Shown one piece after another: positions 1,852 to 19,693 of a DNA stretch of 64,000 nucleotides. Location of the stretch: contig JBEBAU010000018.1 in the NCBI GenBank assembly GCA_041158765.1, forward strand, positions 2,557 to 66,556, in the 5' to 3' direction. How positions within the stretch are numbered: position 1 is the first letter of the stretch; each line of letters opens with the position of its first letter. The translations under genes and the position numbers were made by a program. Under the pieces are notes generated by a model. It made no database searches. It saw only the letters and a program-made list of their open reading frames with translations, and was not told the DNA's origin. Source of the DNA: Candidatus Parcubacteria bacterium (lineage in GTDB: Bacteria > Patescibacteriota > Minisyncoccia > Phycocordibacterales > PALSA-1337).

Positions 1852-2901
1852 ATGACAACAACCCAATTCAAACCAAAAGTATCGACGAAGCGCCTCCTTA
1901 GTGTGCTTCCAGACCGAGCTCGTGATGTGCTCATAAATCGCTATGGATTGGGCAAGAGTTCTGAAAAAATGACTCTTGATGCTATTGGCAAACTCTACGG
2001 TATCACTCGAGAACGCGTTCGCCAGATCGAGAACTACGCTATCACTAATATTCGTAAGTCAGATGCATATAAGCAGGAGCGTGTTGTCTTTGCTGAAATG
2101 GAAGAAATGCTTCACTCACTCGGAGGTATTGTTGTTGAAGAAGATTTCCTCGGTTCTGTCTCAAAAGACGCTTCAACTCAGAATCATATTCATTTCCTCC
2201 TTGTTGTCGGAGATGGTTTCAAAAAGAATAAAGAAGATGATGAATTTAAGCACCGATGGCATGTGAATGAACAGCTTGCAAAGCAGGTTGAAGACTCACT
2301 TCGCAAATTGTACTCAGGTCTTTCAGATCAAGACCTCCTTCCTGAATCAGAAATGGTTGGCAAGTTCCTCGAACACCTCGAAGGTGTTGCTGAGAAGTAT
2401 AAGAATCAAGAAATTGTGAAGCGATGGCTCGGACTTTCGAAGCATATCGGTAAGAATGCAATTGGCGAATGGGGTGTTGCTCACTCACCGAATATTAAGA
2501 CCAAGGGTATGCGAGACTATGCATTCCTCGTTATTCGCAAGCATGGATCACCAATTCATTTCCGTGAAGTAGCGAAGCAGATCGGTCTTGTTTTCAAAAA
2601 GAAGGCTCACGTTGCAACTACACACAATGAACTTATCAAGGATCCACGATTCGTTCTCGTTGGTCGAGGACTCTATGCACTCGCAGAATGGGGATATATG
2701 TCAGGAGTTGTGAAGGATGTCATCAAGAAGATTATCGAGAAGCATGGTGCGCTCAGCAAGGATGAAATTATCGAGAAGGTTCTCAAGGAGCGATATGTGA
2801 AAGAGAACACCATCATGGTAAATCTCCAGAATCAGAAGCATTTCAAAAAGACAAAAGAGGGCAAGTACCATCTTTCAGAAGAAAAAGCACCAGCTGCATA
2901 G
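1852..2901 (+). CDS. Sigma-70 region 4-like HTH domain protein (N-terminal r4 HTH fused to an uncharacterised ~280-aa C-terminal domain)
   Basis: N-terminal LPDRARDVLINRYGL...TLDAIGKLYGITRERVRQIENYAITNIRK matches the sigma-70 region 4 signature; the remainder is unassigned. Confidence 0.6.
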   Translation: MTTTQFKPKVSTKRLLSVLPDRARDVLINRYGLGKSSEKMTLDAIGKLYGITRERVRQIENYAITNIRKSDAYKQERVVFAEMEEMLHSLGGIVVEEDFLGSVSKDASTQNHIHFLLVVGDGFKKNKEDDEFKHRWHVNEQLAKQVEDSLRKLYSGLSDQDLLPESEMVGKFLEHLEGVAEKYKNQEIVKRWLGLSKHIGKNAIGEWGVAHSPNIKTKGMRDYAFLVIRKHGSPIHFREVAKQIGLVFKKKAHVATTHNELIKDPRFVLVGRGLYALAEWGYMSGVVKDVIKKIIEKHGALSKDEIIEKVLKERYVKENTIMVNLQNQKHFKKTKEGKYHLSEEKAPAA

Positions 2902-2923
2902 GTAGACGCCTCCCAAGTTGGGG

Positions 2924-2964
2924 AAAAGCGCCGCCACATCTCAAATTGAGGTGGCGGCGCTTTT
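2924..2964 (+). terminator. Intrinsic terminator (gcgccgccac ... gtggcggcgc + TTTT)
   Basis: 10-bp perfect GC-rich stem with an A-tract before and a T-tract after, just downstream of the stop at 2901; forces the next gene to start at ATG 2988, not 2946. Confidence 0.7.
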
Positions 2965-2987
2965 CAATTGGTTGTATACTTTCAGAT

Positions 2988-4301
2988 ATGTTTGAGGAAG
3001 TAATTATATACGCCCCGATTTGGGGCTCAGCACTTATCGCTCTTGTGTTGGCTATTATCTTTTTGATGCCATCACTTGCGGCAGAGTATGGTGCTATCTT
3101 TTCTCAAGAACTCGCATTCTTCCTTATTACGATGCCGTACTGGTTGCCATTTTTTGGCGTCTTCGTTTTTTGGAGGACATGGGTCGTATATGTTCGTTCG
3201 AGATATCTCGCAAGTCTCAAATGGATACTACTCGAAATACGTCTTCCACAAGATGTGTTCAAATCTCCGCTTGCAATGGAGACATTCCTTATGGCGCTTC
3301 ATCAGACAGGAGGAGAGACAACATTCATTGATCGTTGGTGGAAAGGTCAGGTCCGTGCACATTGGTCACTTGAGATTATTTCAGTTGAAGGACAGATAAA
3401 ATTCATCATTTATACACAAGCCCGATACAAGACAATGGTCGAAGCTGCATTATATGCGCAGTACCCAGATATTGAAATACATGAAATTCCCGACTATACG
3501 AAGTCATTTCACTATGATCCAAAAGAGAATGATTTGTATGTTATTGATTACAAATTCAAGAATCCAAATCCATATCCAATAAAGACATATGTTGATTACG
3601 GTATTGATAGTGAACAAGTAGAAGAAGAGAACAAAATTGACCCAATCAATCACATGCTCGAATTCATGGGATCTCTTGGAGCACATCAGCAGTGTTGGTT
3701 TCAGATGATTATTCGAGCTCACAAAAAAGATCAGACAAAACCAGGTACTCTCTGGCAGAAAACAGACCTTTGGAAGGATGAAGCAAAGAAAGAAATTGAA
3801 AAAATCCGTGCTAGTTCAGTCCAAAAGACCGATGGTACTGTCGCAATCAAATTCCCAAACCCAACAAAAGGAGAACAGGAACGTATTGCTGCACTTGAAC
3901 GTGCGGTTTCGAAGCTTTCATTCGATGTCGGTCTTCGTTGTATATACATGGGTAAAAAAGAATTTTTTAATGGATCAAATATTAGCGCACAGCGAACTAT
4001 TCTCCGTGCATACAGTGCGCCACACCTCAATGAGCTCAAACCAACAGATTGGCTCGATGGTTTTGACTATCCTTGGCAGGATTTCAGAGATATGCGTAAA
4101 AAGCATAAGAAGCGTTTGGGACTCGAAGCATATAAGCGTCGCTCTTACTTCTATGCGCCAATTATTGGCAAAGAAAGACTTGTTATGTCAGTTGAAGAAA
4201 TTGCGTCAATCTTCCACTTGCCTGGTCAAGTTACTCAAACACCAAACCTTACACGTATTCCATCAAAGAAGGTCAAAGCTCCTTCAAATCTTCCAATATA
4301 A
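2988..4301 (+). CDS. Hypothetical membrane-anchored protein (two N-terminal TM helices plus a large soluble domain)
   Basis: Long ORF with protein-like composition; start moved to ATG 2988 because 2946-2964 lies in the upstream terminator; no family recognised. Confidence 0.5.
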   Translation: MFEEVIIYAPIWGSALIALVLAIIFLMPSLAAEYGAIFSQELAFFLITMPYWLPFFGVFVFWRTWVVYVRSRYLASLKWILLEIRLPQDVFKSPLAMETFLMALHQTGGETTFIDRWWKGQVRAHWSLEIISVEGQIKFIIYTQARYKTMVEAALYAQYPDIEIHEIPDYTKSFHYDPKENDLYVIDYKFKNPNPYPIKTYVDYGIDSEQVEEENKIDPINHMLEFMGSLGAHQQCWFQMIIRAHKKDQTKPGTLWQKTDLWKDEAKKEIEKIRASSVQKTDGTVAIKFPNPTKGEQERIAALERAVSKLSFDVGLRCIYMGKKEFFNGSNISAQRTILRAYSAPHLNELKPTDWLDGFDYPWQDFRDMRKKHKKRLGLEAYKRRSYFYAPIIGKERLVMSVEEIASIFHLPGQVTQTPNLTRIPSKKVKAPSNLPI

Positions 4302-4313
4302 CAATCTCACTAC

Positions 4314-5342
4314 ATGGATTTCCCAACACCAATTCCACCATTACCTCTGAATCAGGTAATTTCACAGAAAAAAGTATCGAAACTACTTATTGGTATCGTG
4401 GTCGCGGTTCTCGTGGTAATTCTATTGTTTGTCGCTGGTTTCTTTTTTTCAATGCCACCAAAGTCATTTGTTGTGGGTGATATTGTTACTGTTCCTAAGG
4501 CCACGACACTTTCAAAAGTTGCAGATATGTTAGATGAACGAGGACTTATACGGTCGAAAGATATGTTTAAAATCGCGGCGCTCATGGTCGGAGGTCGCAA
4601 TGGCGCTATGTCTGGAGATTATCTCTTCGATACGCCAGAAAGTGTTTGGACAATTGCATATCGAATTACGCATGCACAGCAGGGTATTGCACGAGTGAAA
4701 GTTACGTTTCCCGAAGGTTTCACTGTGAAAGAAATCGGTGCAACTTTGGTCAAAGCTATTCCAACATTTGATGAAAAAGGTTTTTTGGATGCAGCATCAA
4801 CTTCTGAGGGGTACTTATTCCCTGATACATATTATTTTTTTGGAAATGTTGATCCGGCTGAAGTCGTACGAGTGCTTCGCTCGGAATTTGATCGCAAGTA
4901 TGCTTCAGTTCGAAGTGATCCAGCAATCATGACTGGCAGTGTGTATGGCCGTTCAAAAAAAGACATTGTTACGATGGCGTCAATTGTTGAAAAGGAGGCC
5001 GTTGAGCAAACTGATCGAGAAATGGTTGCGGGAATTCTATGGAAGCGATTGGACAAAGGCATGCTTCTGCAAGTTGATCCGCCATTTCAGTATTTTCTTG
5101 GAAAAACAACATTTGATTTGACGTTTGATGATTTGAAAGTTGATTCACCATATAACACGTACCTTCACAAAGGATTACCACCAACACCAATAGATAATCC
5201 TGGCGTCGATGCATTACGAGCAACAATGCAAGCAAAATCGTCTCCATACTGGTTCTATCTTTCAGATAAAAAAGGGGGAATGCACTATGCTCGAACCTAT
5301 GATGAACACCTTACAAATAGAAGATTGTATCTTGGCAAATAG
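4314..5342 (+). CDS. mltG: Endolytic murein transglycosylase MltG (YceG-like)
   Basis: N-terminal TM anchor, YceG-like domain with the EGYLFPDTYYF motif and a conserved C-terminal region. Confidence 0.8.
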   Translation: MDFPTPIPPLPLNQVISQKKVSKLLIGIVVAVLVVILLFVAGFFFSMPPKSFVVGDIVTVPKATTLSKVADMLDERGLIRSKDMFKIAALMVGGRNGAMSGDYLFDTPESVWTIAYRITHAQQGIARVKVTFPEGFTVKEIGATLVKAIPTFDEKGFLDAASTSEGYLFPDTYYFFGNVDPAEVVRVLRSEFDRKYASVRSDPAIMTGSVYGRSKKDIVTMASIVEKEAVEQTDREMVAGILWKRLDKGMLLQVDPPFQYFLGKTTFDLTFDDLKVDSPYNTYLHKGLPPTPIDNPGVDALRATMQAKSSPYWFYLSDKKGGMHYARTYDEHLTNRRLYLGK

Positions 5343-5389
5343 TAGTGTGTGAAATTGTATTGCTGTCACGAAGATGGTATCGTTTGCGT

Positions 5390-6538
5390 GTGAAAAATAC
5401 ACAGCAAAAGAAGAAGGTATTCGTGGGAATGTCCGGAGGAGTTGATAGCTCGGTTTCTGCGGCATTGCTCAAACATGCCGGTTACGATGTAACTGGAGTG
5501 TTTATCAAGGTGTGGCAACCTGATTGGATTACCTGTACGTGGAGAGAAGATCGAATTGATGCAATGCGAGTAGCAGCAGTGCTCGGTATCAAATTCGTAA
5601 CGCTCGATCTCGAAGATGTGTATAAACGCGAGGTAGTTGATTATATGATTGCCGAATATCGTGCTGGGCGAACACCAAATCCCGATGTGATGTGTAATCG
5701 GTATGTGAAATTTGGTGGATTTTTTGATTGGGCAATGAAACAGGGTGCTGATTATGTTGCAACGGGACACTATGCACGAATTGTGAAAAAAGAGGGTGTT
5801 GTAGCTGGAAGTGGTGAAAATGCAGACAAAAGAAACGTGGCGATATATGAATTATGTGCAGGAGACGATCGAAACAAAGATCAGTCGTATTTTCTTTGGA
5901 CACTTGGGCAGCGCGAGCTTTCGCACACGCTGTTTCCTGTGGGTGCTATCGAAAAGCCAGCTGTGCGAAAGCTCGCGCATTCTTTCAAACTTCCAACTGC
6001 CACAAAAAAAGATAGCCAAGGCCTTTGTTTCATTGGAAAAATTGATATCAAAGATTTTCTTTCACGATATATTGAAACAAAGCCCGGTATGGTACTTGAT
6101 GAAAAAGGTGAAAAAATCGGCAGTCATGACGGTGCGGTGTTTTTTACGATGGGAGAGCGACACGGTTTCACTATTGATGCCAAGCACAAAACCCCCAATG
6201 ACAATCCGTATTATGTCGTTTCAAAAGATATTGAAAAAAATACCATAACTGTCGCTTCTGGAAAATCAGATACACAGACTTTCATACAAAAAGAGATTAC
6301 TCTTGAGCAAACGAATTGGAATACTGACATCATACCCGTAGCCACTGCCACATATTATGCTCGACCACGATATCGTGCAGCACTCGTACCAATTTCAATT
6401 CAAGATGCCAATAACACAAAAAAGACCACAAGAATTATTTTCACTGAACCACAACAAACACTTTCATCTGGACAATCACTCGTGATATACGCTGACGCTC
6501 AAGGAGAGGTGTGTATTGGTGGAGGAATCATTGCATAA
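5390..6538 (+). CDS. mnmA: tRNA-specific 2-thiouridylase MnmA
   Basis: PP-loop SGGVDSS, plus KVWQPDW and CFIGKIDIKDFL motifs; start placed at in-frame GTG 5390 (VKNTQQKKKVFVGMSGGVDSS); the ORF track's upstream ATG 5345 overlaps mltG. Confidence 0.85.
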   Translation: MKNTQQKKKVFVGMSGGVDSSVSAALLKHAGYDVTGVFIKVWQPDWITCTWREDRIDAMRVAAVLGIKFVTLDLEDVYKREVVDYMIAEYRAGRTPNPDVMCNRYVKFGGFFDWAMKQGADYVATGHYARIVKKEGVVAGSGENADKRNVAIYELCAGDDRNKDQSYFLWTLGQRELSHTLFPVGAIEKPAVRKLAHSFKLPTATKKDSQGLCFIGKIDIKDFLSRYIETKPGMVLDEKGEKIGSHDGAVFFTMGERHGFTIDAKHKTPNDNPYYVVSKDIEKNTITVASGKSDTQTFIQKEITLEQTNWNTDIIPVATATYYARPRYRAALVPISIQDANNTKKTTRIIFTEPQQTLSSGQSLVIYADAQGEVCIGGGIIA

Positions 6539-6570
6539 TTCTTGGTATACTGTTTGTCATGAATCACCTC

Positions 6571-7404
6571 ATGTACATTACCAAGGCTGATGGAGGCAAG
6601 GAGCTCTTCGAGGAAGAAAAGCTTGTTGATTCGCTTCGTCGTGTTGGTGGATCCGAAGAATTGATCGCATCGGTTGTGGAGAAGGTTGAAAGTGAAATGC
6701 GTGATGGTATGACGACTGGTGAAATTTATGCGCACGCCTTCGAGCTCCTACGACAGCGTTCAAGTCATGTTGCGGTGAAGTACTCGCTTCGCAGAGCACT
6801 TTCGGAACTTGGTCCAAATGGTTTTCCTTTTGAAAAATTTATTGCAGAAATATTTAAGACATGGGGATATCAGACACTTACTGATCAAACCGTCATGGGT
6901 TCTTGTGTACCACACGAAGTTGATATTGTTGCGTGGAATCCAGAGAAGCTAATCATGGTTGAAGCGAAGTTTCATAATGAATTCGGAATCAAATCTGATG
7001 TGAAAGTTGCACTCTATGTGAAAGCCCGCTTCGACGATATTAAGGGCGCGATATACGATTATGGAGGTATTAAGCGCGAAATGACCGAAGGCTGGCTTGT
7101 GACGAATACGAAGTTCACCGATCAAGCAATTCGGTATGGCGAATGCAAGGGTTTGAAAATGATTGGTTGGAACTATCCTGCACGTGGCAATCTCCAGCAG
7201 ATCATCGAAGGTTCAGGACTTCACCCGTTTACTTGTCTCTCAACTTTGAGTAATGTACATAAACGAGCACTTCTCGATCGAGGAATACTGCTCTGTCGTG
7301 ATATCAAAGCACAGCCGGCAATTTTGAAAGAGCTCGGTATGGATATGGCAAAAGCTAATGCAGTAATTGATGAAATAAATGAAGTGTGTGGTTTTCACGA
7401 ATAA
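6571..7404 (+). CDS. ATP-cone domain fused to an Mrr-like (PD-(D/E)XK) restriction-endonuclease domain
   Basis: N-terminal ITKADGGKELFEEEKLVDSLRRVG...EIYAHAFELLR resembles the NrdR-type ATP-cone; the central HEVDIVAWNPEKLIMVEAKFHNE resembles the Mrr_cat nuclease core; start chosen at MYITK (alternatives 6511 or 6559). Confidence 0.6.
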   Translation: MYITKADGGKELFEEEKLVDSLRRVGGSEELIASVVEKVESEMRDGMTTGEIYAHAFELLRQRSSHVAVKYSLRRALSELGPNGFPFEKFIAEIFKTWGYQTLTDQTVMGSCVPHEVDIVAWNPEKLIMVEAKFHNEFGIKSDVKVALYVKARFDDIKGAIYDYGGIKREMTEGWLVTNTKFTDQAIRYGECKGLKMIGWNYPARGNLQQIIEGSGLHPFTCLSTLSNVHKRALLDRGILLCRDIKAQPAILKELGMDMAKANAVIDEINEVCGFHE

Positions 7405-7420
7405 TAAATAGTAATTTCAC

Positions 7421-8647
7421 ATGAAAAAAACAGCATATAAGCCTCCACAAAAAATACTTGAAAAGTACGCAGATGTACTCGTGAATTTTGCTTTGGGTGG
7501 AGGAAAAGGAATAAAAAAGGGCGAGGTCGTGCGTATAACTGCAGAAGAATGTGCGAAACCGCTATTCCTTGAATTACGCAAGGCAGTGTGGCGTGCTGGT
7601 GGGCATGTGATTTCACATTATCTTCCAAGCAATGATGAAGAATACAATGTTGAAAAGGACTTTTTCGATCACGCATTGCAACATCAACTCGAATTTTTCC
7701 CTGAGCACTCACTTAAGGGTCTTATCAAGCAACTTGACCACACTATTTTCATCATTAGCGAAACAGACAAAAAGGCACTTGCAGGTGTTGATCCAAAAAA
7801 GATGATGCAAGTCGGACAAGCGATGAAGCCATTCATGGAATGGAGAAATGAAAAGGAGAATGCGGGCAAATTCACATGGACACTCGCACTCTACGGCACT
7901 GAAGCTATGGCAAAAGAGGCGGGGATGTCTCTCGAAGAATATTGGAAACAAATAATCAATGCATGCTATCTCAATGACGCTAATCCAATTGCTACTTGGA
8001 AGAAGGTCTACAAAAACCTCGAATCATATCGAAACAAGCTCAACAAAATGCAGTTTGATAAGTTCCATGTACAAGGTCCTGATGCAGATCTCTGGATTAG
8101 CTATGGTGAGAAGCGTGCATGGATGGGTGGCTCTGGTCGTAATGTGCCAAGCTTCGAACTTTTCACATCACCTGATTGTAGGGGAACTAACGGCTGGATT
8201 CGTTTCAATCAGCCCCTCTATCGCTACGGTAATCTTATTGAAGGTATTGAGCTTACATTCAAGGATGGTCATGTGGTGAAAGCTTCTGCCACAAAGAATG
8301 AAAAAGTCTTGAAACAAATGATCGCTACTGAGAACGCAGATATGGTTGGAGAGTTTTCTATGACAGACAAGCGGTTTTCAAAAATTACAAAGTTTATGGC
8401 CGAGACGCTTTTTGATGAAAATATCGGCGGGGAACACGGTAATACACATATTGCGCTCGGTAATGCATATCATGATTGTTATGCTGGAAATCCAGCGAAG
8501 GTTACCAAAAAACAGTGGCATAAGCTTGGCTACAATAATTCATCAGTGCATACAGATATGGTTTCAACTGCGCCACGCACCATCACCGCATATATGAAAG
8601 ATGGTTCAACGAAGGTGATATACAAGGATGGAATGTATGTTCTGTAG
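7421..8647 (+). CDS. Aminopeptidase of the M29 (AmpS/PepS) family
   Basis: Length and similarity to thermophilic metallo-aminopeptidase family M29 (FDENIGGEHGNTHIALG... region). Confidence 0.75.
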   Translation: MKKTAYKPPQKILEKYADVLVNFALGGGKGIKKGEVVRITAEECAKPLFLELRKAVWRAGGHVISHYLPSNDEEYNVEKDFFDHALQHQLEFFPEHSLKGLIKQLDHTIFIISETDKKALAGVDPKKMMQVGQAMKPFMEWRNEKENAGKFTWTLALYGTEAMAKEAGMSLEEYWKQIINACYLNDANPIATWKKVYKNLESYRNKLNKMQFDKFHVQGPDADLWISYGEKRAWMGGSGRNVPSFELFTSPDCRGTNGWIRFNQPLYRYGNLIEGIELTFKDGHVVKASATKNEKVLKQMIATENADMVGEFSMTDKRFSKITKFMAETLFDENIGGEHGNTHIALGNAYHDCYAGNPAKVTKKQWHKLGYNNSSVHTDMVSTAPRTITAYMKDGSTKVIYKDGMYVL

Positions 8648-8772
8648 CTTTTTTGTGAGGGATTGACAAAGCGCGATTTTTACGCTACTTTTTGATGCAT
8701 TGTAGTACCCGTGATGTGCCTGTAGCATGTTTCGGTTAGATTGAAAAAAACAACCTCCGCCACCAATTAGTT

Positions 8773-9135
8773 ATGATATTAGCCACACTCTATCACCCGA
8801 AGAGTTCTTTGGGTCCGCATCAAGCTGCGGTGATTTTGCAAACGTTCCCTGATCTTTTCCGGAACGCTGTGTATCAGGATCAGCCACAGAGCAATCGCGC
8901 TCGTAACAAAGTGTTTCTGGAAATTCGTGAATATTCTGGAAATGCAGTTACTCCGCGAATGCTGATCGTGATTGAAGTTGTGGGGCAGTTGGTCAGTAAC
9001 CACCCACTCTACAGCGAAGAGGGCTGCCGCGCTCTGAAGGATTCAATTTTGAAAAAAAATCCTGCAGCTCCCCAGAGTTTGAGCATTTTCGACTTCGACC
9101 TTGTCGTGAAATTCGCGTCCGGCATCGTTGCTTGA
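8773..9135 (+). CDS. Hypothetical small protein in a GC-elevated segment
   Basis: 120-aa ORF followed by a terminator; competing 74-aa ORF on the minus strand; coding status uncertain. Confidence 0.25.
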   Translation: MILATLYHPKSSLGPHQAAVILQTFPDLFRNAVYQDQPQSNRARNKVFLEIREYSGNAVTPRMLIVIEVVGQLVSNHPLYSEEGCRALKDSILKKNPAAPQSLSIFDFDLVVKFASGIVA

Positions 9136-9155
9136 ACTTTTCTTGTGCGACACAC

Positions 9156-9190
9156 CAAAGCCTTTCTTTTTGAAAGGCTTTTTATTTTTC
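9156..9190 (+). terminator. Intrinsic terminator (aaagccttt/aaaggcttt + T-tract)
   Basis: 9-bp stem then tttttattttt. Confidence 0.6.
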
Positions 9191-9250
9191 ACAATATATA
9201 GACACCGCCATAAACTCGAAAAAAAACCATAAATCTGTTATATTGCTCGC

Positions 9251-11137
9251 ATGGATACAAAGCTCAGCTCAGCCCAAATACGTTCACGATTCCTCGCTTT
9301 CTTCGAGAAGCGAGGGCATACAATCATACCTTCTGCATCTCTCGTTACGAGCGATGAAAAGGGTGTAACCAATCCTACACTTTTCAACACTGCTGGTATG
9401 CAACCGCTCATACCATATCTTCTTGGTAAGCCATATATTAAGGACGGCGCGACTGTCACTCGTCTTGCTGATTCACAGAAGTGCGTTCGTACTATTGATA
9501 TTGATGATATTGGTGATAAGACACATGCTACTTTTTTTGAAATGCTTGGTAATTGGTCTCTTGGTGATTATTTCAAAAAAGAGGCTATTGAATGGAGTTT
9601 TCAATTCTTAACTAATCCAGTTGATGCCCCGAAGGGTGATGCTGGTCTTGGTCTCAATCCAAACCGTCTTTACGTCAGTGTTTTCGAAGGTGATGCTGTT
9701 GCGCCACGTGATGAAGAAGCAGCTGAAATTTGGCGAGCTATTTTCAAAAAGAATGGTATTGATTTTGGTGGGGATACAACACAAGGTGAAGCTGGTCGCA
9801 TTTTCTATTTGCCTGCAAAAAATAATTGGTGGGAAGCTGGAGACAATGGTCCATGCGGTCCTGATACAGAGATGTTTTATGATGTTGAAAATACATTCGG
9901 TGGCAAGCTTCTCACGCACGCTGAGTATGTGAAGGCTGATGATGAGCGAACCGTGCTCGAGATTTGGAATGATGTATTCATGCAGTATGAAAAGAAGGAC
10001 GGCAAAGTCATCGGCAAACTTCCAAAGCCATCTGTTGATACAGGCGCCGGCCTTGAGCGTCTCACAATGACATTACAGGGTGTGGATAATATTTACGATA
10101 CGGATTTGTTGAAGCCCGTTATGGATCTCATGAAGAATCCAAATGCAGATATTCGTAATAAACGAATAGTTGCAGATCATCTTCGAGCAAGCGTTTTCAT
10201 GATTTCAGATGGTGTTATTCCATCAAATACTGATCGAGGATACATCCTCCGTCGTCTTATTCGTCGCGCGGTTATGAATACAACCGATAAGAAGCTTGAT
10301 GCACCACGAGTGAATGCATTCGTTACTACACTTGTGCAGATTTATGCCGATTCATATCCAGAACTTACGAATGGTGTTGAACAAATAAAAAAAGTTTTAC
10401 TTGAAGAGTGTGAAAAGTTTGCTAAGACACTCGAGCAAGGTATGAAAGAATTCGATAAGGTTACTCAGGGAGTGAGTGAAATTTCTGGTCCTGTTGCTCT
10501 TACACTTTCATCATCATTTGGTCTGCCAATCGATTCGATTGAAGAACTCGCAAAAAGTCATGGTAAAACTGTGAATATCGCAGAATATCTTACAGAATTC
10601 AAAAAACACCAAGACCTCTCTCGTGCGGGTGCAGAACAGAAGTTCAAGGGTGGTCTTGCTGATGCAAATGATCCGATGGTGCTTCGATATCATACAGCTA
10701 CGCACCTTCTTCATCAGGCACTTCACGATGTACTTGGCGAAGAATCAGGGGGTCAGAAGGGTTCGAATATCACCGCTGAGCGATTACGTTTTGATTTCAT
10801 GGGTATCAAGCTTACTGACGAGCAAAAGAAGCGAGTTGAGGATATTGTGAATGAAAAAATTGCCCTCAAATTACCAATGAATAAAGTGGTTCTTCCAAAG
10901 AGTGAGGCAGAGAAGACTGGTGCACGGCATTTCTTTGGTGAAAAGTACGGCGATGAAGTTTCAATTTATTTCATTGGTACTGATCTTGCTCATGCTTACT
11001 CAAAAGAGTTCTGTGGAGGTCCACACGTTACCAATACTGCTGATCTTGCAGGGCCTGAAGGCACGTGGAAATTCAAAATCCAAAAAGAAGAAGCTGTTTC
11101 ACAGGGTGTTCGACGTATCAAAGCTGTTTTGCAGTAA
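9251..11137 (+). CDS. alaS: Alanyl-tRNA synthetase, compact form lacking the C-Ala domain
   Basis: Class II AlaRS catalytic core at the N-terminus; editing-domain motifs HTATHLLHQALHDVLG and CGGPHV; only 628 aa. Confidence 0.85.
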   Translation: MDTKLSSAQIRSRFLAFFEKRGHTIIPSASLVTSDEKGVTNPTLFNTAGMQPLIPYLLGKPYIKDGATVTRLADSQKCVRTIDIDDIGDKTHATFFEMLGNWSLGDYFKKEAIEWSFQFLTNPVDAPKGDAGLGLNPNRLYVSVFEGDAVAPRDEEAAEIWRAIFKKNGIDFGGDTTQGEAGRIFYLPAKNNWWEAGDNGPCGPDTEMFYDVENTFGGKLLTHAEYVKADDERTVLEIWNDVFMQYEKKDGKVIGKLPKPSVDTGAGLERLTMTLQGVDNIYDTDLLKPVMDLMKNPNADIRNKRIVADHLRASVFMISDGVIPSNTDRGYILRRLIRRAVMNTTDKKLDAPRVNAFVTTLVQIYADSYPELTNGVEQIKKVLLEECEKFAKTLEQGMKEFDKVTQGVSEISGPVALTLSSSFGLPIDSIEELAKSHGKTVNIAEYLTEFKKHQDLSRAGAEQKFKGGLADANDPMVLRYHTATHLLHQALHDVLGEESGGQKGSNITAERLRFDFMGIKLTDEQKKRVEDIVNEKIALKLPMNKVVLPKSEAEKTGARHFFGEKYGDEVSIYFIGTDLAHAYSKEFCGGPHVTNTADLAGPEGTWKFKIQKEEAVSQGVRRIKAVLQ

Positions 11138-11209
11138 TATTGCTCATTGCACATTCGTATTGTTTGAATTATCACCACCTGTGATTCACGGCTGTGATAT
11201 ACTAGACGC

Positions 11210-12460
11210 ATGTCCTTCACATCACTTTTTCGCCATACAGAAAAAGCTACAGTAGAACAGGGTGCCGGTGCACTTTGGGCGCTTATCGACATTCAGAGTG
11301 GTCTTGTTCGAGGTTCTCTCGTACTTTTGAATCCGGGTAAGCCTTCACGTATTCTATATACAACACAACACCAGCTCCCACACAAAACAATTGCAAGTTC
11401 AGCGTATATTACCAAGATGATGCTGAAAGGCGTTTCTGAGGTTGCCGCAGAATTAAGCAAAAAAGGCTTCATCAGTGCTGATGTTGGTGGTACTGTGGAT
11501 TCTTCTGGACAGCAATTTGGATATCACGGCAATCTCGCTGGCGTGCATTACATTCTTTCATCTCCTTGGGTAATATCTCAGACAAAAACAGTAAAAATTG
11601 CATATGACAAACCAACAGTTATTACTCAAGCAACTGTTCAAGGGGTTATCGATCGAGCTCGTGCCGAACTTGAAGCGGGAGAATTTAATTTTGATGCAAT
11701 TTCAATTGAACAAAAAATATTTGAAGTGAAACTTAACGGCTATTCGGTCGGTAATTATGAAGGAAAGACAGCAAGTAATCTCGAAGTCTCTTGTGCGATT
11801 TCAGTAAGCTCAAATAAGATTCTTGAAAAGATTGCTACACACGCACAACGCTCGCTTCATACTAAGAGATTCCGATATCATTCAGCACTCTTACTTGAGT
11901 ATGCGGGTCTACGAAGTGTATTACGTGATCATCAAGAATACATGGTCATCCACGCTCATAGCGAATTAACCGACGTGGTGGTAGTGAGAGCTGGAATGTG
12001 CGCATTCCTTTCATCATTTCCATTCGGAATATTCACGGTGCTCCGCAAAATCGCAAGAACAACTCGCCAGACGGTATCTATTGCTGATTCAACACTCGCT
12101 TTGTATGACCATAGTAATGAAAGTTCCGGCTCTATTCCAAAAAGCCTTTCTCGAGAAGAACAGATTAGATTGGAACCAGTGATTTCTGCTATCGGCAAAG
12201 GATGGATTCACGATCTCCATGCTGCTCTTGCACATGCTGGAGAACGAATGGTTATTCCACGTTTGATTGTGCTTTCTGCACATAGTCATTTGTCGTTTTT
12301 CAAAAGCGAGCTCGAAAAGTCAGCTCCAGTAGGGTCTGCGCCAGCCATTTCAGCTTTGGAGCTTCCGGTGATAGAACCATTCGTGCAGTATGATCCGGGA
12401 CAAGTACGAAGTTTGCGAATGGGAATATATACGACAGCGATAGCAAACCTTGAAAATTAA
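11210..12460 (+). CDS. Hypothetical protein, possibly a divergent actin-like ATPase fold (FtsA/PilM/Ppx-GppA-like) with degenerate phosphate motifs
   Basis: N-terminal ALWALIDIQSGLVRGSLVLL and the later ADVGGTVDSS and VVVVRAGMCAF segments loosely resemble actin-fold phosphate/adenosine motifs; weak. Confidence 0.35.
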   Translation: MSFTSLFRHTEKATVEQGAGALWALIDIQSGLVRGSLVLLNPGKPSRILYTTQHQLPHKTIASSAYITKMMLKGVSEVAAELSKKGFISADVGGTVDSSGQQFGYHGNLAGVHYILSSPWVISQTKTVKIAYDKPTVITQATVQGVIDRARAELEAGEFNFDAISIEQKIFEVKLNGYSVGNYEGKTASNLEVSCAISVSSNKILEKIATHAQRSLHTKRFRYHSALLLEYAGLRSVLRDHQEYMVIHAHSELTDVVVVRAGMCAFLSSFPFGIFTVLRKIARTTRQTVSIADSTLALYDHSNESSGSIPKSLSREEQIRLEPVISAIGKGWIHDLHAALAHAGERMVIPRLIVLSAHSHLSFFKSELEKSAPVGSAPAISALELPVIEPFVQYDPGQVRSLRMGIYTTAIANLEN

Positions 12461-12474
12461 TTTAATATATTTTT

Positions 12475-13845
12475 ATGTCTGAAAAGAAGATGCCACAAGA
12501 TATGGTTCCAAATAATCGTCGATCGATACGTGATATCAAGGTGAAGCTTACACCTATGGATGAAAAGCCTTTGCCACGAGCCAAGGTGACTGTGAAGCCT
12601 CCGCCAGAAGTTAGAGCTGCACGACGAGCAAGTTCAAGTACAGCTTCTGGTTCTGTTTCAAAAAAGAGACATGAATCAAATCGAACTAAGATGGTATTGA
12701 TGTTTGGTATTTTGATATTGTGCATCGGTATTATTCTCGCAGCAATTTCACTTATTTTTTCAAGTGGAACTGTTGTAGTGAAACCTAAGGTGATTTCACT
12801 TGCAGTGAATACATCAGTATCCGCTCGACCGAATGCCGCGAATACCTCTGGTGGGCTTTCATACGAAGTTATTACTGCAACAAAAGACATGTACGCAACT
12901 ATTCCTTCAGTTCCTGGGCCGGCTATTCTCAAAAAAGCTACAGGAACAGTCACTCTATATAACAAATACTCTGCTACACCTCAAAAAATCGTCGCAGGTA
13001 CACGATTGAGCAATACGAAGGGTCTTATATATCGTACACAGACAGCGGTGACAATACCTGCAATGCGGGGAACAGGTAGCAAAGCCGTCGCAGGAAGTGT
13101 TGATGTGAAAGTTATTGCAGATCAAGCTGGTGCAAACTACAATGCGACACTCACAGACCTCACTGGTGATTTCAAAATTGTTGCATATAAGGGTACAACC
13201 AAATACACAACGATATTTGCGCGATCAAAGACCGACTTAGTTGGTGGATACTCAGGTGTAAGTACTGTTCCAGACAAAACTGCTCTTGCTACAACCCAAA
13301 AAGGTCTTTCACAAACACTCAAAGCACAACTTCTCGCAGATTCAAAGACATTGATACCAAAGGGTTATGTTTCATACAATGCCGCAGATCAGATTTCATA
13401 TACTATGATTGATCCAGTTGCGAAGGGTACAAGCAGTGCGTCTGTAGGTGTGAAGGCAACCTATTCAACATATATTTTCAAATCAGTTGATTTGGTTAAT
13501 ACATTTGCAAAAGATCAGGTCGCACAGTTTCCATCAGGAGGATTCACTATCGAGGGTCTTGATGCGCTCAATGTTCAAATTGCTTCTTCAACAGCAGCCG
13601 CTGGATTATCAGCTTCATCATCAAAACCAATTTCATTTGGTTTGAAAGGGGATATCCGTCTTGTCGGTATTGTACCTGTGGATAAGTTGAAGCAAGAGCT
13701 TGTAGGAATAGCCCTTTCCGACACTGCTGGAGTAATAAAACGCTATAGTACAATTGCGAGCGCCTATGCTAAAATATCTCCTGTCTGGATGCGTTCAATG
13801 CCTGATAGTCCAGAGCGTATTACCGTAGAAATTCAGTCAGAATAA
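12475..13845 (+). CDS. Hypothetical bitopic membrane protein (basic cytoplasmic N-terminus, one TM helix, large Thr/Ser/Ala-rich extracytoplasmic domain)
   Basis: TM segment MVLMFGILILCIGIILAAISLIF after a K/R-rich N-terminus; no family recognised. Confidence 0.45.
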   Translation: MSEKKMPQDMVPNNRRSIRDIKVKLTPMDEKPLPRAKVTVKPPPEVRAARRASSSTASGSVSKKRHESNRTKMVLMFGILILCIGIILAAISLIFSSGTVVVKPKVISLAVNTSVSARPNAANTSGGLSYEVITATKDMYATIPSVPGPAILKKATGTVTLYNKYSATPQKIVAGTRLSNTKGLIYRTQTAVTIPAMRGTGSKAVAGSVDVKVIADQAGANYNATLTDLTGDFKIVAYKGTTKYTTIFARSKTDLVGGYSGVSTVPDKTALATTQKGLSQTLKAQLLADSKTLIPKGYVSYNAADQISYTMIDPVAKGTSSASVGVKATYSTYIFKSVDLVNTFAKDQVAQFPSGGFTIEGLDALNVQIASSTAAAGLSASSSKPISFGLKGDIRLVGIVPVDKLKQELVGIALSDTAGVIKRYSTIASAYAKISPVWMRSMPDSPERITVEIQSE

Positions 13846-13896
13846 CCTCAAGTTGGGGTCAAAAAGGCAGCCAACACGGAAATCCCCGTGCTGGTA

Positions 13897-13925
13897 TTGA
13901 CTTTTTTTGTGCTTTCAGCTACTAT
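13897..13925 (+). promoter_or_regulatory. Sigma-70-like promoter TTGACT-17-TACTAT upstream of infA
   Basis: Seen in sequence; about 60 nt upstream of the infA ATG. Confidence 0.5.
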
Positions 13926-13984
13926 GGTTCGACGCGTTACGTTTGGTGTATCGCGATGTTCTCTAGTCTCTATTTCGAAAAACC

Positions 13985-14203
13985 TTGGCAAAAATTTCCG
14001 CAAATAATCTCACATTTGGAGTAGTTACAGAAGCGTTGCCTGATACGCTTTTCCGAGTGAAGCTTGATGGAAAAGATGATGTGGTGCTTGCATATCTCGC
14101 TGGCAAGATGCGCATGCATCGGATCAAGGTGCTTATCGGCGATCGAGTAGAGTTGGCACTTGACCCATACGGGGGACGTGCACGCGTCACCAAACGTTTG
14201 TAG
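13985..14203 (+). CDS. infA: Translation initiation factor IF-1
   Basis: 72-aa S1-like protein; TLFRVKLDGKDDVVLAYLAGKMRMHRIKVLIGDRVELAL matches IF-1. Confidence 0.9.
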   Translation: MAKISANNLTFGVVTEALPDTLFRVKLDGKDDVVLAYLAGKMRMHRIKVLIGDRVELALDPYGGRARVTKRL

Positions 14204-14262
14204 CAAAGAGTTAGACATGACCGCAGAAATACATTTCAAATCAAAAAAAGCAAAATAATATT

Positions 14263-14379
14263 ATGAAAGTAAAAGCATCAGTAAAAAAGATTTGTCCAAA
14301 GTGTAGCGTTGTTCGACGCAAGGGTTATGTATACATTATCTGCAAGGCAAATCCTCGCCACAAGCAGAGACAGGGCTAA
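14263..14379 (+). CDS. rpmJ: 50S ribosomal protein L36 (38 aa; below the ORF-track size cutoff)
   Basis: Translated by hand: [38 protein letters not shown], with the zinc-ribbon C-x2-C...C...H pattern of L36; lies between infA and rpsM as expected. Confidence 0.85.
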
Positions 14380-14412
14380 TACGAATTATTTCAATATCAT
14401 TATATTAATCAC

Positions 14413-14793
14413 ATGCGTATCCTCGGTATCACAATTCCAGACGGCAAGCGACTCGAAATAGCTCTCACAGCTCTTTATGGTATTGGCCGATCTCGTGCAC
14501 TACATATTCTCAAGGAAGCACAGGTTGATGTTGCTATCAAAGCAAAGGATGTAACAGTTGATCAGGAGAATGCTATTCGTAAAGTTATCGAAACATTCAG
14601 AATCGAAGGAGATTTGAAGCGAGAAGTTGCTTCGAATATTAAGCGTCTCAAGGACATCAAGTCATTCCGTGGAAGCCGACACGCACGACGTCTCCCAGCT
14701 CGAGGGCAGCGTACCAAGACCAACTCCCGAACTGTACGAGGTAACGTCCGAAAGACTATGGGATCTGGACGAAAGAAGGAGGAGAAGAAATAA
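14413..14793 (+). CDS. rpsM: 30S ribosomal protein S13
   Basis: MRILGITIPDGKRLEIALTALYGIGRSRA... canonical S13. Confidence 0.9.
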   Translation: MRILGITIPDGKRLEIALTALYGIGRSRALHILKEAQVDVAIKAKDVTVDQENAIRKVIETFRIEGDLKREVASNIKRLKDIKSFRGSRHARRLPARGQRTKTNSRTVRGNVRKTMGSGRKKEEKK

Positions 14794-14820
14794 GACTGAA
14801 CGAATATTAATATCATTATT

Positions 14821-15276
14821 ATGGCAGAGAAAAAAACTACAACAAAGAAAGAGGTCACAAAGAAGGATGCTCCAAAGGCAGAGCCTACTAAGGCTGCTAC
14901 TGCAGCACCAGCTACTTCGTCAAAGAAGCGGCTTGATTTTGGTGTTCTCTATGTTCAGTCTACATACAATAACACCAAGGTTCTTCTCACTGACGCAAAG
15001 GGCAATGCAATTATGGCTTCATCTGCGGGTGCTCTTGGTTTCAAGGGTGCAAAGAAGGGTACACCATTTGCTGCAGCTAAGGTTGGTGAAACTCTCGCTA
15101 TGAAGGCACAGCCAATGGGACTCAAGGAAATCGCTGTTGTAGTAAAAGGTACTGGATCAGGTCGCGAATCAGCAATTCGCGGCTTTATTTCTAAGGGTAT
15201 CATCATTACTAGCATCAAGGATGTAACCCCGGTTCCATTCAACGGCCCGAAGCCGAAGAAGCCGCGACGAGTATAA
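14821..15276 (+). CDS. rpsK: 30S ribosomal protein S11
   Basis: GVLYVQSTYNNTKVLLTDAKGNAIMASSAG...GTGSGRESAIRG canonical S11. Confidence 0.9.
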   Translation: MAEKKTTTKKEVTKKDAPKAEPTKAATAAPATSSKKRLDFGVLYVQSTYNNTKVLLTDAKGNAIMASSAGALGFKGAKKGTPFAAAKVGETLAMKAQPMGLKEIAVVVKGTGSGRESAIRGFISKGIIITSIKDVTPVPFNGPKPKKPRRV

Positions 15277-15305
15277 AGCCTTTCATTTAATTTTTTACCA
15301 TTCAT

Positions 15306-15923
15306 ATGATTATTGGACCACGATACAAAATAGCCCGCCGCCTCGGAGTGCCTGTCTTTGAAAAGACACAGACACAAAAGTTCGCAATGCGATCAGCTGC
15401 TCGCGATGGAGGAAAGGGTGCAGGCAAGGGCCGCCCAAAGGCAAAGTCTGATTTCGGTCTCGGACTTCTCGAGAAGCAGAAAGCTCGATACAGCTATGGT
15501 GTTACTTCAAAGCAGTTCGGTAATTACATTGCAAAGGCTGTTGAGAAGAAGGGTAACTCAGCTGAACTTCTCGTTCGTCTCCTCGAATCTCGTCTCGATA
15601 ACGTTGCTCTCCGTGCTGGATTTGCAACAACACGTGCCGCTGCACGACAGATGGTATCTCACGGTCATATTACAGTGAATGGTAAGCGCGTTACTATCCC
15701 TTCATACTCTGTTTCAGTTGGAGATATTATTTCTATTCGTGAAGGAAGCAAAAAGAAGGCTCTTTATAATACACTCGATGAGCGCCTCAAAGCAGTGAAG
15801 ATTCCTGCTTGGTTGAAACTCGATTTTGATAAGAAGGTTGTTACCGTTGACGGCCTTCCGTTCGCCCCAACTACCGAACTCCTGTTCAATCCGGGTGCAG
15901 TGCTCGAGTTTTATAGCCGTTAA
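15306..15923 (+). CDS. rpsD: 30S ribosomal protein S4
   Basis: RYKIARRLGV..., LESRLDNVALRAGFATTRAAARQMVSHGHITVNGKRV (S4 domain). Confidence 0.9.
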   Translation: MIIGPRYKIARRLGVPVFEKTQTQKFAMRSAARDGGKGAGKGRPKAKSDFGLGLLEKQKARYSYGVTSKQFGNYIAKAVEKKGNSAELLVRLLESRLDNVALRAGFATTRAAARQMVSHGHITVNGKRVTIPSYSVSVGDIISIREGSKKKALYNTLDERLKAVKIPAWLKLDFDKKVVTVDGLPFAPTTELLFNPGAVLEFYSR

Positions 15924-15949
15924 TTAGTAATAATTTTAATACAAAACAT

Positions 15950-16927
15950 ATGTCTAATTTCAACGTTGTATTGCCATCAAAGCCAAAGATCATCCGCGAG
16001 GAGGGTATGAATGGCGTGTATGAGATCGACGGTCTTTACCCAGGCTACGGACACACACTCGGTAACTCACTCCGACGTATTATTCTTTCATCTCTTCCTG
16101 GAGCTGCAGTAAGCAAGGTTAAGATCAAGGGTGTCGAACATGAATTTTCATCAATTGATGGCGTCAAGGAAGACGTTATTGCTATTCTTTTGAATTTGAA
16201 AAAGCTCCGTGTTCGTATCAATGGTGACGAAGCACAGGTTATTACCTTAAAAGCAAAGGGTGTTAAGTCTATCAAAGCAAAGGATATTGATGCTCCTTCT
16301 CAGGTTGAAATTCTTAATCCTGAACTCCACCTTATCGAACTCACTGACAAAGCTGCTGAGATTGATATGGAAATCACTGTAGTTAAGGGTCTTGGATATG
16401 TTGCTAAGGAAGTTCTCGAAAAGGACCGAGTTGATATCGGTACTATTTCACTCGATGCAACTTTCACTCCTATCCGAAAGGTGAATTATGAAGTTGAAAA
16501 CATGCGAGTTGGAGATCGAACTGATTTCAATCGTCTTCGCATCACTATCGAGACTGACGGTACACTCACTCCTAACGAAGCTCTCACGGAATCTATTGGT
16601 ATTATGATTAGCCAGCTTAAGGCTATTGTTGGTTTCAAGGAAGAAGAAGTTGTGAAATCAAAGAAGTCTGATAAGTCTTCTGACGATGAAGATGCTGCTT
16701 CAGAAGGAGCAACAAAGGAACTCGATGCTGATATGTTGAAGACACGCATTGATACTATTGGTCTTTCTCCTCGAACAATCAAGGCTCTTACTGCTGCAAA
16801 CATTCGCACAATCGGAGGCCTTTCACGAAAGAAGGAGGCTGATATCCTCGATGTCGAAGGTCTTGGCACAAAGGGTATTCAGGAAATCAAAAAGGTCCTT
16901 TCAACCTATGGTATTTCACTGAAATAA
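15950..16927 (+). CDS. rpoA: DNA-directed RNA polymerase alpha subunit
   Basis: N-terminal GHTLGNSLRRIILSSLPGAAV; C-terminal alpha-CTD after an acidic linker. Confidence 0.9.
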   Translation: MSNFNVVLPSKPKIIREEGMNGVYEIDGLYPGYGHTLGNSLRRIILSSLPGAAVSKVKIKGVEHEFSSIDGVKEDVIAILLNLKKLRVRINGDEAQVITLKAKGVKSIKAKDIDAPSQVEILNPELHLIELTDKAAEIDMEITVVKGLGYVAKEVLEKDRVDIGTISLDATFTPIRKVNYEVENMRVGDRTDFNRLRITIETDGTLTPNEALTESIGIMISQLKAIVGFKEEEVVKSKKSDKSSDDEDAASEGATKELDADMLKTRIDTIGLSPRTIKALTAANIRTIGGLSRKKEADILDVEGLGTKGIQEIKKVLSTYGISLK

Positions 16928-16954
16928 TATAGATAAGCATTAATAATCACTACC

Positions 16955-17305: not shown

Positions 17306-17326
17306 TAGACACATCAAGAAATTTTT

Positions 17327-17707: not shown

Positions 17708-17718
17708 TATCGACATTT

Positions 17719-18141: not shown

Positions 18142-18252
18142 ATGCGCTTGCTCGGCCGGAGCTCGCGTAGGCGAGCGAGGCGGGGTCGCGAGATTTTTCA
18201 GCAGAAAAATACTCGTGACGCAAACGATAGTCCTGACGCAAGCGCTAAACTC

Positions 18253-18283: not shown

Positions 18284-18338
18284 ATTGTGATAATGTGCGA
18301 TTTGGGATACCAAAATTGTTGTTTGTGAAAGGAAACCT

Positions 18339-19027: not shown

Positions 19028-19033
19028 TATAAA

Positions 19034-19691: not shown

Positions 19692-19693
19692 AA

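Follow-up and report, generated by a model that had tools for sequence, protein, structure and literature searches.

An ATP-cone joined to a PD-(D/E)XK nuclease in Paceibacteria: a candidate nucleotide-gated housekeeping enzyme of nucleic-acid turnover

The stretch of DNA analysed here (the window: 64,000 nucleotides of contig JBEBAU010000018.1, assigned to a Candidatus Parcubacteria bacterium) encodes a 281-residue protein in which an ATP-cone, the nucleotide-sensing domain of ribonucleotide reductases (RNRs) and of the repressor NrdR, is joined to an Mrr-like PD-(D/E)XK nuclease core and a C-terminal helical domain. An earlier note on this DNA had recognised the first two parts and had suggested a standalone defence effector; our analyses uphold the architecture and lead to a different role. 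We read the protein, hereafter the ATP-cone nuclease, as a housekeeping, nucleotide-gated nuclease of nucleic-acid turnover or salvage, and we hold this reading to be about evenly poised between right and wrong. By analogy with other ATP-cone proteins, a nuclease gated by nucleotides would be the most sensible mechanism. The evidence comes from the conservation of sensor, linker and active site, from a fixed position among housekeeping genes in Paceibacteria, and from a recurrent nucleotide-catabolic cassette in distant relatives.

The ATP-cone that the earlier note had placed at the N-terminus is borne out by both profiles and structure. Residues 5-80 match the Pfam ATP-cone family PF03477 with 28.8 bits against a gathering cutoff of 25.8, and the family profile aligns to E. 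coli NrdR with a probability of 87% and E=4e-6 (hhalign). In the AlphaFold2 model, the cone consists of strands at residues 6-8 and 14-16 and helices at 19-28, 33-46, 53-67 and 69-82, and so presents the N-terminal beta-hairpin capping a four-helix bundle that is a feature of the ATP-cone fold. The model superposes on the cones of NrdR and RNRs with a root-mean-square deviation of 1.8-2.1 A over 81-85 residues (Foldseek; NrdR entries 9fvr, 9fxk and 7p37). A PDB search with the cone sequence alone returned only designed helical-repeat proteins and was uninformative. Profile-profile alignment sets I7, K9, E15, K21 and Y75 opposite V51, K53, E59, K65 and Y131 of E. coli NrdR, which contact the inner ATP and the outer dATP (PMC12176259). 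Conservation was read from two alignments, A2 (35 homologues, 35-68% identity) and A4 (88 homologues, 36-76% identity). K9 does not vary in A4 and reaches at least 90% conservation in A2, a level that K21 and Y75 reach in both alignments; conservation of E15 is restricted to Paceibacteria. The cone keeps the conserved nucleotide-contact residues, and from these alignments nucleotide binding is predicted.

The Mrr-like nuclease core proposed in the earlier note holds as well. Residues 89-199 match PF04471 (Mrr_cat) with 27.5 bits against a cutoff of 21, and the AlphaFold2 model of the full-length protein, built on 88 homologues (predicted local distance difference test, pLDDT, 91.2; predicted template-modelling score, pTM, 0.85; confident inter-domain geometry), shows the alpha-beta-beta-beta-alpha-beta order of the PD-(D/E)XK superfamily. 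The motif quoted earlier, VDIVAWNPEKLIMVEAKFHNE, is present at residues 121-141 and contains the complete catalytic triad of D122, E135 and K137, which is invariant in both A2 and A4. The elements of the core are E92 in helix 1, C116-V-x-H119-E120-x-D122 in strand 2, E135-x-K137-F-H-N in strand 3 and T182-N183-T184-x-F-T in strand 4; E92, H119 and E120 show no variation in A4 and at least 90% conservation in A2, and T182-N183-T184 is invariant or nearly so across the two sets. Because the triad is invariant in homologues down to ~35% identity, retained catalysis is argued for, and the core is predicted to be catalytically intact. In the linker between cone and core, G85 and F91 are invariant in A2 and A4; in A4 the same holds for P86, G88 and E92, which in A2 are at least 90% conserved or less strictly kept. 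Since the stretch L-G-P-x-G-F-P-F-E is almost invariant, tight mechanical coupling of cone and nuclease is suggested, and the linker is probably an allosteric relay.

These residues also bear on whether the protein cuts at all. NrdR, the only characterised stand-alone ATP-cone protein, is a nucleotide-controlled repressor, and inactive restriction-endonuclease-fold binding domains are known, one of which (NA-iREase1) gave a weak Pfam match here (E=0.21). By this analogy, the ATP-cone nuclease could be a non-catalytic, nucleotide-sensing DNA-binding regulator whose nuclease fold and C-terminal tail serve only to bind DNA. The invariance of D122, E135 and K137, together with the near-invariance of the adjoining H119 and E120, speaks against such a regulator, no conserved target operon is evident, and we regard it as extremely improbable.

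What the earlier note missed is the C-terminal domain, and with it a solved relative that has no cone. AF1548 of Archaeoglobus fulgidus (PDB 1Y88) is homologous to residues 94-278 (phmmer, E=2.6e-31), a match that runs through the C-terminal domain of AF1548, and its structure matches the model with a Foldseek E of 1e-14, a template-modelling (TM) score of 0.76 and 34% identity in the structural alignment. The homology spans the nuclease and the C-terminal helical domains, and the ATP-cone nuclease is a member of an AF1548-like family. The AF1548 chain has 199 residues and the match begins at its residue 23, hence it carries no ATP-cone. The prediction of AF1548 as a D/E/K restriction-type nuclease comes from the Global Ocean Sampling paper (PMC1821046), and the D...ExK triad of the window protein is the triad predicted there. 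As a structural-genomics protein without known function, AF1548 gives the fold and not the mechanism. The Pfam family AF1548-like_C (PF22357) scores 17 bits at residues 237-276, below its cutoff of 23.9, and is recorded for many homologues. A model of the isolated C-terminal domain (pLDDT 78) has 1Y88 as its best match and next resembles helix-hairpin-helix (HhH) folds, namely the N-terminal domains of RadA/RAD51, the thumbs of Y-family polymerases (kappa, iota), BAF and the C-terminal domain of the RNA polymerase alpha subunit (TM 0.53-0.62). Going by these models, the domain is probably a non-specific nucleic-acid-binding module, which is a reasonable but weak inference. Pfam searches gave no match to Mrr_N or another modified-DNA reader at the N-terminus, where the ATP-cone stands instead, and detected no RNA-binding domain in the window protein; no NCBIfam model matches the family.

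The family also has conserved cysteines. In the 88 diverse sequences of A4, C116 and C196 never vary, and C246 and C277 are kept in at least 90%; C226 is nearly invariant in narrower sets and varies in the broadest one. AF1548 retains three of these five. The conserved cysteines could form a metal, Fe-S (four-cysteine) or redox site that joins the nuclease core and the C-terminal domain.

In Paceibacteria, the gene order around homologues with 51-72% identity is fixed: (leuS), a Sigma70_r4/HARE-HTH protein, DUF8128, YceG, MnmA, the ATP-cone nuclease, a peptidase (M29 or M3) and AlaRS. We counted neighbours in 80 genome loci, with denominators of 69 upstream and 70 downstream. On the same strand upstream, MnmA occurs in 65 of 69 loci, YceG in 59 and DUF8128 in 56, and AlaRS follows downstream in 54 of 70. 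Measured within the same genomes, the median identity to the window proteins is 56.6% for the ATP-cone nuclease, 54.7% for MnmA, 56.6% for AlaRS, 43.2% for YceG and 42.8% for DUF8128. Fixed synteny, this level of conservation and near-absence from mobile elements indicate a vertically inherited housekeeping gene rather than a defence gene.

This evidence goes against the standalone defence or abortive-infection (Abi) effector that the earlier note had put forward, which would be a type IV-like restriction nuclease triggered by infection-induced changes in the ATP/dATP pools. Defence genes are typically patchy, fast-evolving and found in islands, whereas the ATP-cone nuclease keeps its place in a housekeeping block and is as conserved as AlaRS and MnmA. 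Its relatives are absent from 50,697 phage records (tblastn) and from scans of IMG/VR, and only 2 of 72,556 plasmids carry one. Searches of PADLOC-DB v2 with the window protein, four relatives and the partner proteins gave no passing match; the best reached E-values of ~1e-4 to 2e-3 and 13-21 bits on the nuclease core only (PDC-S02, E=0.002; ZorD, E=0.005; CARF_PDDEXK, ~1e-4 in relatives). In favour of a defence role, a sensor attached to a PD-(D/E)XK nuclease is a common defence architecture, the core is weakly similar to the CARF-PD-(D/E)XK effectors Can2, Card1-like VC1899 and Cdn1, to MspJI and AspBHI and to the ZorD nuclease, and two family members carry an in-frame PemK-like toxin extension. 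The earlier note was also right that no methyltransferase partner is present among the genes scanned in the window, as expected of type IV or Abi systems. The survey of homologue neighbourhoods that it had called for turned up nucleotide-catabolic and stress genes as partners and no methyltransferases; defence-system genes are absent from the Paceibacteria loci and from the recurrent neighbours. With the PADLOC results and the lack of phage and IMG/VR relatives, a defence role was rejected, and we consider it very improbable.

The ATP-cone nuclease shares the Mrr_cat family, above the Pfam cutoff, with Mrr, MspJI and AspBHI, and the nuclease domains of the latter two are weakly similar in structure. 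Unlike these enzymes, it has no winged-helix or SRA-like modified-DNA reader, does not lie in defence islands, is rare on mobile elements, and is strongly conserved and syntenic with housekeeping genes. Lacking both a modified-DNA reader and defence-type genomic behaviour, it is not an Mrr-type type IV restriction enzyme. The CARF-PD-(D/E)XK effectors (Can2, Card1, Cdn1, VC1899-like) follow the same logic of a small-molecule nucleotide sensor fused to a PD-(D/E)XK nuclease, but profile and structure similarity to them is weak and limited to the nuclease core. They sense cyclic oligoadenylate through the CARF domain, whereas the ligand of the ATP-cone nuclease would be a housekeeping adenine nucleotide, and the ATP-cone nuclease has no CRISPR association. 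The cones of NrdR and of NrdA, NrdD and NrdB have the same fold as the one described here and would be expected to operate alike, with an adenine nucleotide controlling the oligomeric state or activity of the attached module; in those proteins the output is a Zn-ribbon DNA binder or a reductase, and here it is a nuclease. By analogy with Can2 and Card1, the ATP-cone nuclease would be a ligand-gated PD-(D/E)XK nuclease with an NrdR-type sensor.

Outside the candidate phyla radiation (CPR), the gene stands in a recurrent cassette. A metagenome scan seeded with non-CPR members yielded 80 loci, of which 48 were informative (at least 3.5 kb downstream). Downstream on the same strand, 31 of the 48 carry a gene for a beta-CASP metallo-beta-lactamase (MBL), 16 an AMPpase-type phosphorylase and 14 a Prs-like (phosphoribosyl pyrophosphate, PRPP, synthetase-like) enzyme, and none of these genes occurs upstream in those loci. 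The beta-CASP gene lies within 600 bp in 27 of the 60 loci having at least 1.5 kb downstream. Unbiased clustering of three open reading frames (ORFs) on each side of 83 loci likewise found a beta-CASP MBL neighbour in 40, at position +1 in 33. Further recurrent neighbours were a P-type cation ATPase (22 loci), AMPpase-like proteins (17), tandem Usp (14), an AAA_28 small NTPase (10), and Prs-like (10), GAPDH-like (5) and 2-hydroxyacid dehydrogenase (5) genes. No methyltransferase or known defence gene recurs in this clustering, and no link to nrd genes was found in any neighbourhood examined. Clustered at ≥70% identity, the 40 MBL-linked loci form 23 groups, with a median pairwise identity of 53%, from which we conclude that the linkage of nuclease and MBL is old and maintained.

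Individual loci give the cassette in more complete form. In the RefSeq annotation of plasmids from Criblamydia and Pontibacter, it consists of an ATP-cone protein, an MBL-fold hydrolase, a thymidine-phosphorylase-family protein and a ribose-phosphate pyrophosphokinase. The same-strand run on the Criblamydia plasmid reads phosphoketolase, glycogen phosphorylase (glgP), ATP-cone nuclease, MBL hydrolase, AMPpase-type phosphorylase, Prs-like enzyme and acetate kinase, and looks like a self-contained module turning polymers into ATP via substrate-level phosphorylation. The Pontibacter plasmid (NZ_CP021236, locus L092) has the same four-gene core; its phosphorylase passes the ARCH_P_rylase and PRK04350 models and falls short of the AMP_phos equivalog cutoff. 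In Fluviicola and in a 'Cyanobacteriota' metagenome-assembled genome (MAG), the next gene encodes a protein with the Lactamase_B, Beta-Casp and RMMBL domains that make up the beta-CASP partner. The Pontibacter copy of this partner (L092 2829-4193) scores best with the NCBIfam model of Cas14, the beta-CASP nuclease of type VII CRISPR (376 bits, cutoff 800), and then with aCPSF1 (271, cutoff 580). As both scores fall below their cutoffs, the partner represents a distinct unnamed subfamily. In an archaeal MAG (L090), the same-strand order is an IF-2B-family gene (R15P-isomerase-like, R15P being ribose-1,5-bisphosphate), RuBisCO, AMP phosphorylase and then the ATP-cone nuclease, and this phosphorylase scores above the AMP_phos equivalog cutoff (595 vs 535). 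The cassette often lies in islands with genes for stress or low energy, among them Usp, P-type ATPase, acetate kinase and CRP/PAS regulators. The low-oxygen locus lxa of B. cenocepacia contains Usp genes, a P-type ATPase, acetate kinase and a metal-dependent RNase (PMC3721108). The cassette islands resemble low-oxygen persistence loci such as lxa by analogy only, as no ATP-cone nuclease is mentioned there.

These neighbours point to the catabolism of nucleoside monophosphates (NMPs). An established NMP-catabolic route of archaea and CPR bacteria, the AMP or pentose-bisphosphate pathway, proceeds through AMP phosphorylase, R15P isomerase and RuBisCO, and the NMPs that it consumes are what nucleases would supply (PMC5113843). 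The pathway as described includes no nuclease. The family gene lies directly downstream of its three genes in the one archaeal MAG and adjoins AMPpase-type phosphorylases in 16-18 bacterial loci, where the cassette has a Prs-like enzyme replacing the isomerase and RuBisCO. From the ATP-cones of RNRs and NrdR, we infer that the cone would bind adenine nucleotides (ATP, dATP, ADP) and switch the nuclease on or off through the invariant linker, nucleotide-dependent oligomerisation, or both. The direction of the switch is a guess: high ATP may inhibit, and low ATP charge may release. Judging by the gene neighbourhoods, the endonuclease would then open nucleic acid, either RNA or DNA, for turnover to NMPs, which would feed nucleotide salvage or energy metabolism. 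In many non-CPR lineages, the nuclease gene comes first in the cassette, ahead of those for the beta-CASP RNase-like protein, the archaeal-type NMP/AMP phosphorylase and the PRPP-synthetase-like enzyme. In Paceibacteria, including the window, it is a stand-alone core gene within a conserved, putative housekeeping operon, and its product would serve nucleotide scavenging or turnover. Paceibacteria are thought to depend on nucleotide scavenging, and core-gene placement fits organisms under that obligation. A bolder proposal, which we put forward tentatively and think rather doubtful, is that the nuclease could be the energy-charge-gated entry enzyme of a widespread, undescribed catabolic module (endonuclease, beta-CASP RNase, NMP/AMP phosphorylase, and a Prs-like enzyme or R15P isomerase plus RuBisCO) that would allow bacteria and archaea to burn or recycle their own or scavenged RNA or DNA when ATP falls; in Paceibacteria, the nuclease would have turned into a core gene.

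Two other housekeeping roles have to be weighed against turnover or salvage. One is DNA repair or recombination, in line with the regulated DNA-damage nuclease that the earlier note had offered as an alternative, with a nucleotide-pool-gated nuclease (a resolvase of Holliday junctions or branched DNA, or a replication-restart or damage nuclease) coupled to dATP/ATP in reduced genomes. Such a role would suit the resemblance of the C-terminal domain to RadA/RAD51 N-terminal domains, polymerase thumbs and the RNA polymerase alpha C-terminal domain, the Mrr/Hjc type of the core, the strong purifying selection and core-gene behaviour in Paceibacteria, and the classical part of ATP-cones in DNA-precursor control, in which dATP is sensed. 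Homologues bear the JGI name 'Holliday junction resolvase-like predicted endonuclease', but annotators' resolvase names are automated. One Parcubacteria locus (L176) adjoins RNase_H_2/exonuclease and PDDEXK_1 genes. The non-CPR operon partners, however, are beta-CASP RNase-like, AMP-phosphorylase-type and Prs-like enzymes rather than recombination or repair proteins, and genes for RecA, RuvAB, ligases or polymerases are not among the recurrent neighbours. We judge a repair role unlikely.

The other is an RNA-processing or decay endonuclease (for tRNA, rRNA or mRNA) tied to translation and co-expressed with mnmA, alaS and leuS, in which ATP charge would tune RNA turnover or ribosome degradation. 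Consistent with it are, in Paceibacteria, the tight linkage to MnmA, with which the gene is probably co-transcribed, and the neighbourhood of AlaRS and LeuS, but only one class shows this arrangement with translation genes, which may be historical. Elsewhere, the beta-CASP partner has the RMMBL 'RNA specificity' domain and is closest to the RNases aCPSF1 and Cas14, and RNA-derived NMPs are substrates of AMP phosphorylase (PMC5113843). Against this role, which we think quite unlikely, stand the usual preference of HhH-type domains and Mrr-type cores for DNA and the lack of a Pfam match to an RNA-binding domain. It overlaps with turnover or salvage, which allows for either RNA or DNA as substrate.

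Several observations weigh against a nucleotide-gated salvage nuclease. At the cone, the residue after the conserved lysine is alanine in the window protein (position 10), aligned with Ser54 of E. coli NrdR; it is alanine or serine across the ATP-cone nuclease family, and arginine stands at the equivalent position in many cones. The HhH-fold matches of the isolated C-terminal domain have non-significant E-values, and substrate cues conflict, with an HhH-like tail suggesting DNA and a beta-CASP partner that looks RNA-directed. The beta-CASP, phosphorylase and Prs-like partners are adjacent in 0 of 70 Paceibacteria loci and absent from the 64-kb window, so that the salvage role is transferred from distant relatives with 40-50% identity. 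About one third of the informative non-CPR loci have no MBL partner, and the remaining neighbours (P-type ATPase, Usp, AAA_28, metal efflux) indicate only a general stress context. In the full-text literature we found no paper on the fusion of ATP-cone and nuclease or on the cassette, and no biochemical data for any family member.

The possible importance of the family follows from its architecture and breadth: across at least 1,000 clusters at 50% identity and several phyla, an ATP-cone sensor is joined by an invariant linker to an intact nuclease. To our knowledge, the ATP-cone has been studied experimentally almost only in RNRs and NrdR. If the module proposed above is real, this would be the first ATP-cone shown to control anything besides ribonucleotide reduction. 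If the cone gates cleavage, ATP/dATP allostery would reach into nucleic-acid degradation, and the AMP/pentose-bisphosphate pathway would gain its missing upstream step, a supply of NMPs. The conservation of a 'restriction endonuclease' among the core genes of genome-reduced Paceibacteria would then also have an explanation. For genome surveys, defence-island screens keyed on Mrr_cat could miscount ATP-cone nucleases.

Table 1. Coordinates of the ATP-cone nuclease gene, its domains, its neighbours and a plasmid relative (positions in the window unless stated)
Feature	Position	Strand	Remarks
Gene for complete 281-aa protein	6559..7404	+	ATG 6559 to TAA 7402-7404, stop included
ATP-cone (aa 5-80)	6571..6798	+	beta-hairpin then helical bundle; PF03477
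Linker L81-S-E-L-G-P-x-G-F-P-F-E92	6799..6834	+	last cone helix to first nuclease helix
PD-(D/E)XK nuclease core (aa 89-199)	6823..7155	+	PF04471; D122/E135/K137; model
C-terminal AF1548-like helical domain (aa 203-281)	7165..7401	+	helix-hairpin-helix/SAM-like
MnmA	5345-6538		upstream neighbour of ATP-cone nuclease gene
M29 aminopeptidase	7421-8647		downstream neighbour of ATP-cone nuclease gene
Putative co-transcribed housekeeping block	1852..9135	+	contains ATP-cone nuclease gene
Criblamydia plasmid NZ_LK031773 (L091)	4749-21567		same-strand gene run; plasmid locus coordinates

The placement of the gene between mnmA and an aminopeptidase gene (Table 1), as the earlier note had it, is correct. 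Homologues share the N-terminus MNHL(I/V)xITKADG, and because they begin at this same point we take 6559 as the start rather than the upstream GTG at 6511, which overlaps mnmA. A protein 100% identical to that of the window (P0001) comes from a 'Candidatus Parcubacteria bacterium' MAG. The putative seven-gene block consists of the Sigma70_r4/HARE-HTH protein, DUF8128, YceG/MltG, MnmA, the ATP-cone nuclease, the M29 aminopeptidase and a small ORF, with alaS starting after it at 9251. Gaps of 2-20 bp flank the ATP-cone nuclease gene. The unit lies between a promoter-like site at 1785-1813 and a strong terminator-like hairpin at 9157-9181, both consensus matches only. The remaining genes of the window are core machinery (rpsD, rpoA, hisS, truB, bipA, a release factor, rpsB, pheT, gyrB and an AddA-like helicase-nuclease). 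In Firmicutes, ruvX stands between alaS and mltG, and the ATP-cone nuclease might conceivably have displaced RuvX/YqgF; no YqgF match was seen among the window ORFs scanned, in which no search was aimed at RuvX/YqgF.

Two upstream members of the block, the Sigma70_r4 plus HARE-HTH protein (1852-2901) and the DUF8128 protein (2946-4301), are uncharacterised, and their genes are syntenic with the ATP-cone nuclease gene in most Paceibacteria loci. The DUF8128 protein had no Pfam match in our live scan, and PF26449 is recorded for the identical locus. In a more distant Parcubacteria lineage, a relative of GW2011_GWA1_47_8 (L176, 1348-5251), mnmA is missing. The genes upstream of the ATP-cone nuclease gene there are RNase_H_2/exonuclease, a PDDEXK_1 nuclease and a 130-aa ORF without a Pfam match; downstream stand MgtC, EamA and AlaRS, and of the linkages of the block only that to AlaRS persists.

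The family is large and widely distributed. There are at least 4,459 matches at 90% clustering, and an exhaustive HMMER search gave, at 50% identity, 1,192 clusters with E<=1e-3, of which 458 reach E<=1e-30; most of the listed cluster members are ~280 aa long and match along almost all of their length. The gene was found in more than 590 species of GTDB (genome scan, alignment A3), a lower bound; the best 80 loci of that scan are all from Patescibacteria. Taxonomic breadth, for which we used the profile protein search, the names of clusters and the plasmid collection, covers Patescibacteria, Bacteroidota (Fluviicola, Spirosomataceae, Flavobacteriales, Pontibacter), Chlamydiota (Criblamydia), Dependentiae, a 'Cyanobacteriota' MAG and a 'Nitrososphaera sp.' MAG. 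Members are annotated in databases as 'ATP cone domain-containing protein', 'restriction endonuclease', 'ATPase' or 'Holliday junction resolvase-like', and under such names the domain architecture is already catalogued. The searchable literature seems to contain no description of the function, the core-gene status in Paceibacteria or the cassette.

Some family members depart from the usual form. Two proteins on Taylorbacteria-like contigs, P0020 (447 aa) and P0059 (444 aa), have an in-frame N-terminal extension of ~165 aa with a PemK/MazF-type toxin domain (PF02452), which ends directly at the canonical MNHLITITKADG start (locus L010, 1076-1909). This may reflect a true fusion, or else a toxin gene that was inserted and is read through. 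The MAG CAZQAQ01 holds two family copies on different contigs (L046 and L057), with 54% and 67% identity to the window protein, reflecting either paralogy or bin contamination.

Elsewhere in the window, two genes directly after alaS, 11210-12460 (416 aa, no Pfam match) and 12475-13845 (456 aa, weak Baseplate_J-like match), form an odd phage-baseplate-like element within a block of core genes, and the pair recurs 3' of alaS in the homologue loci L002 and L004. The AddA-like protein at 20269-23244 (991 aa), with a UvrD helicase and a C-terminal PDDEXK_1 nuclease, is the second PD-(D/E)XK nuclease of the window and is unrelated to the ATP-cone nuclease. A 1083-aa ORF at 24777-28028, with no significant Pfam domain and a marginal fibronectin-III-like match, may encode a large surface protein.

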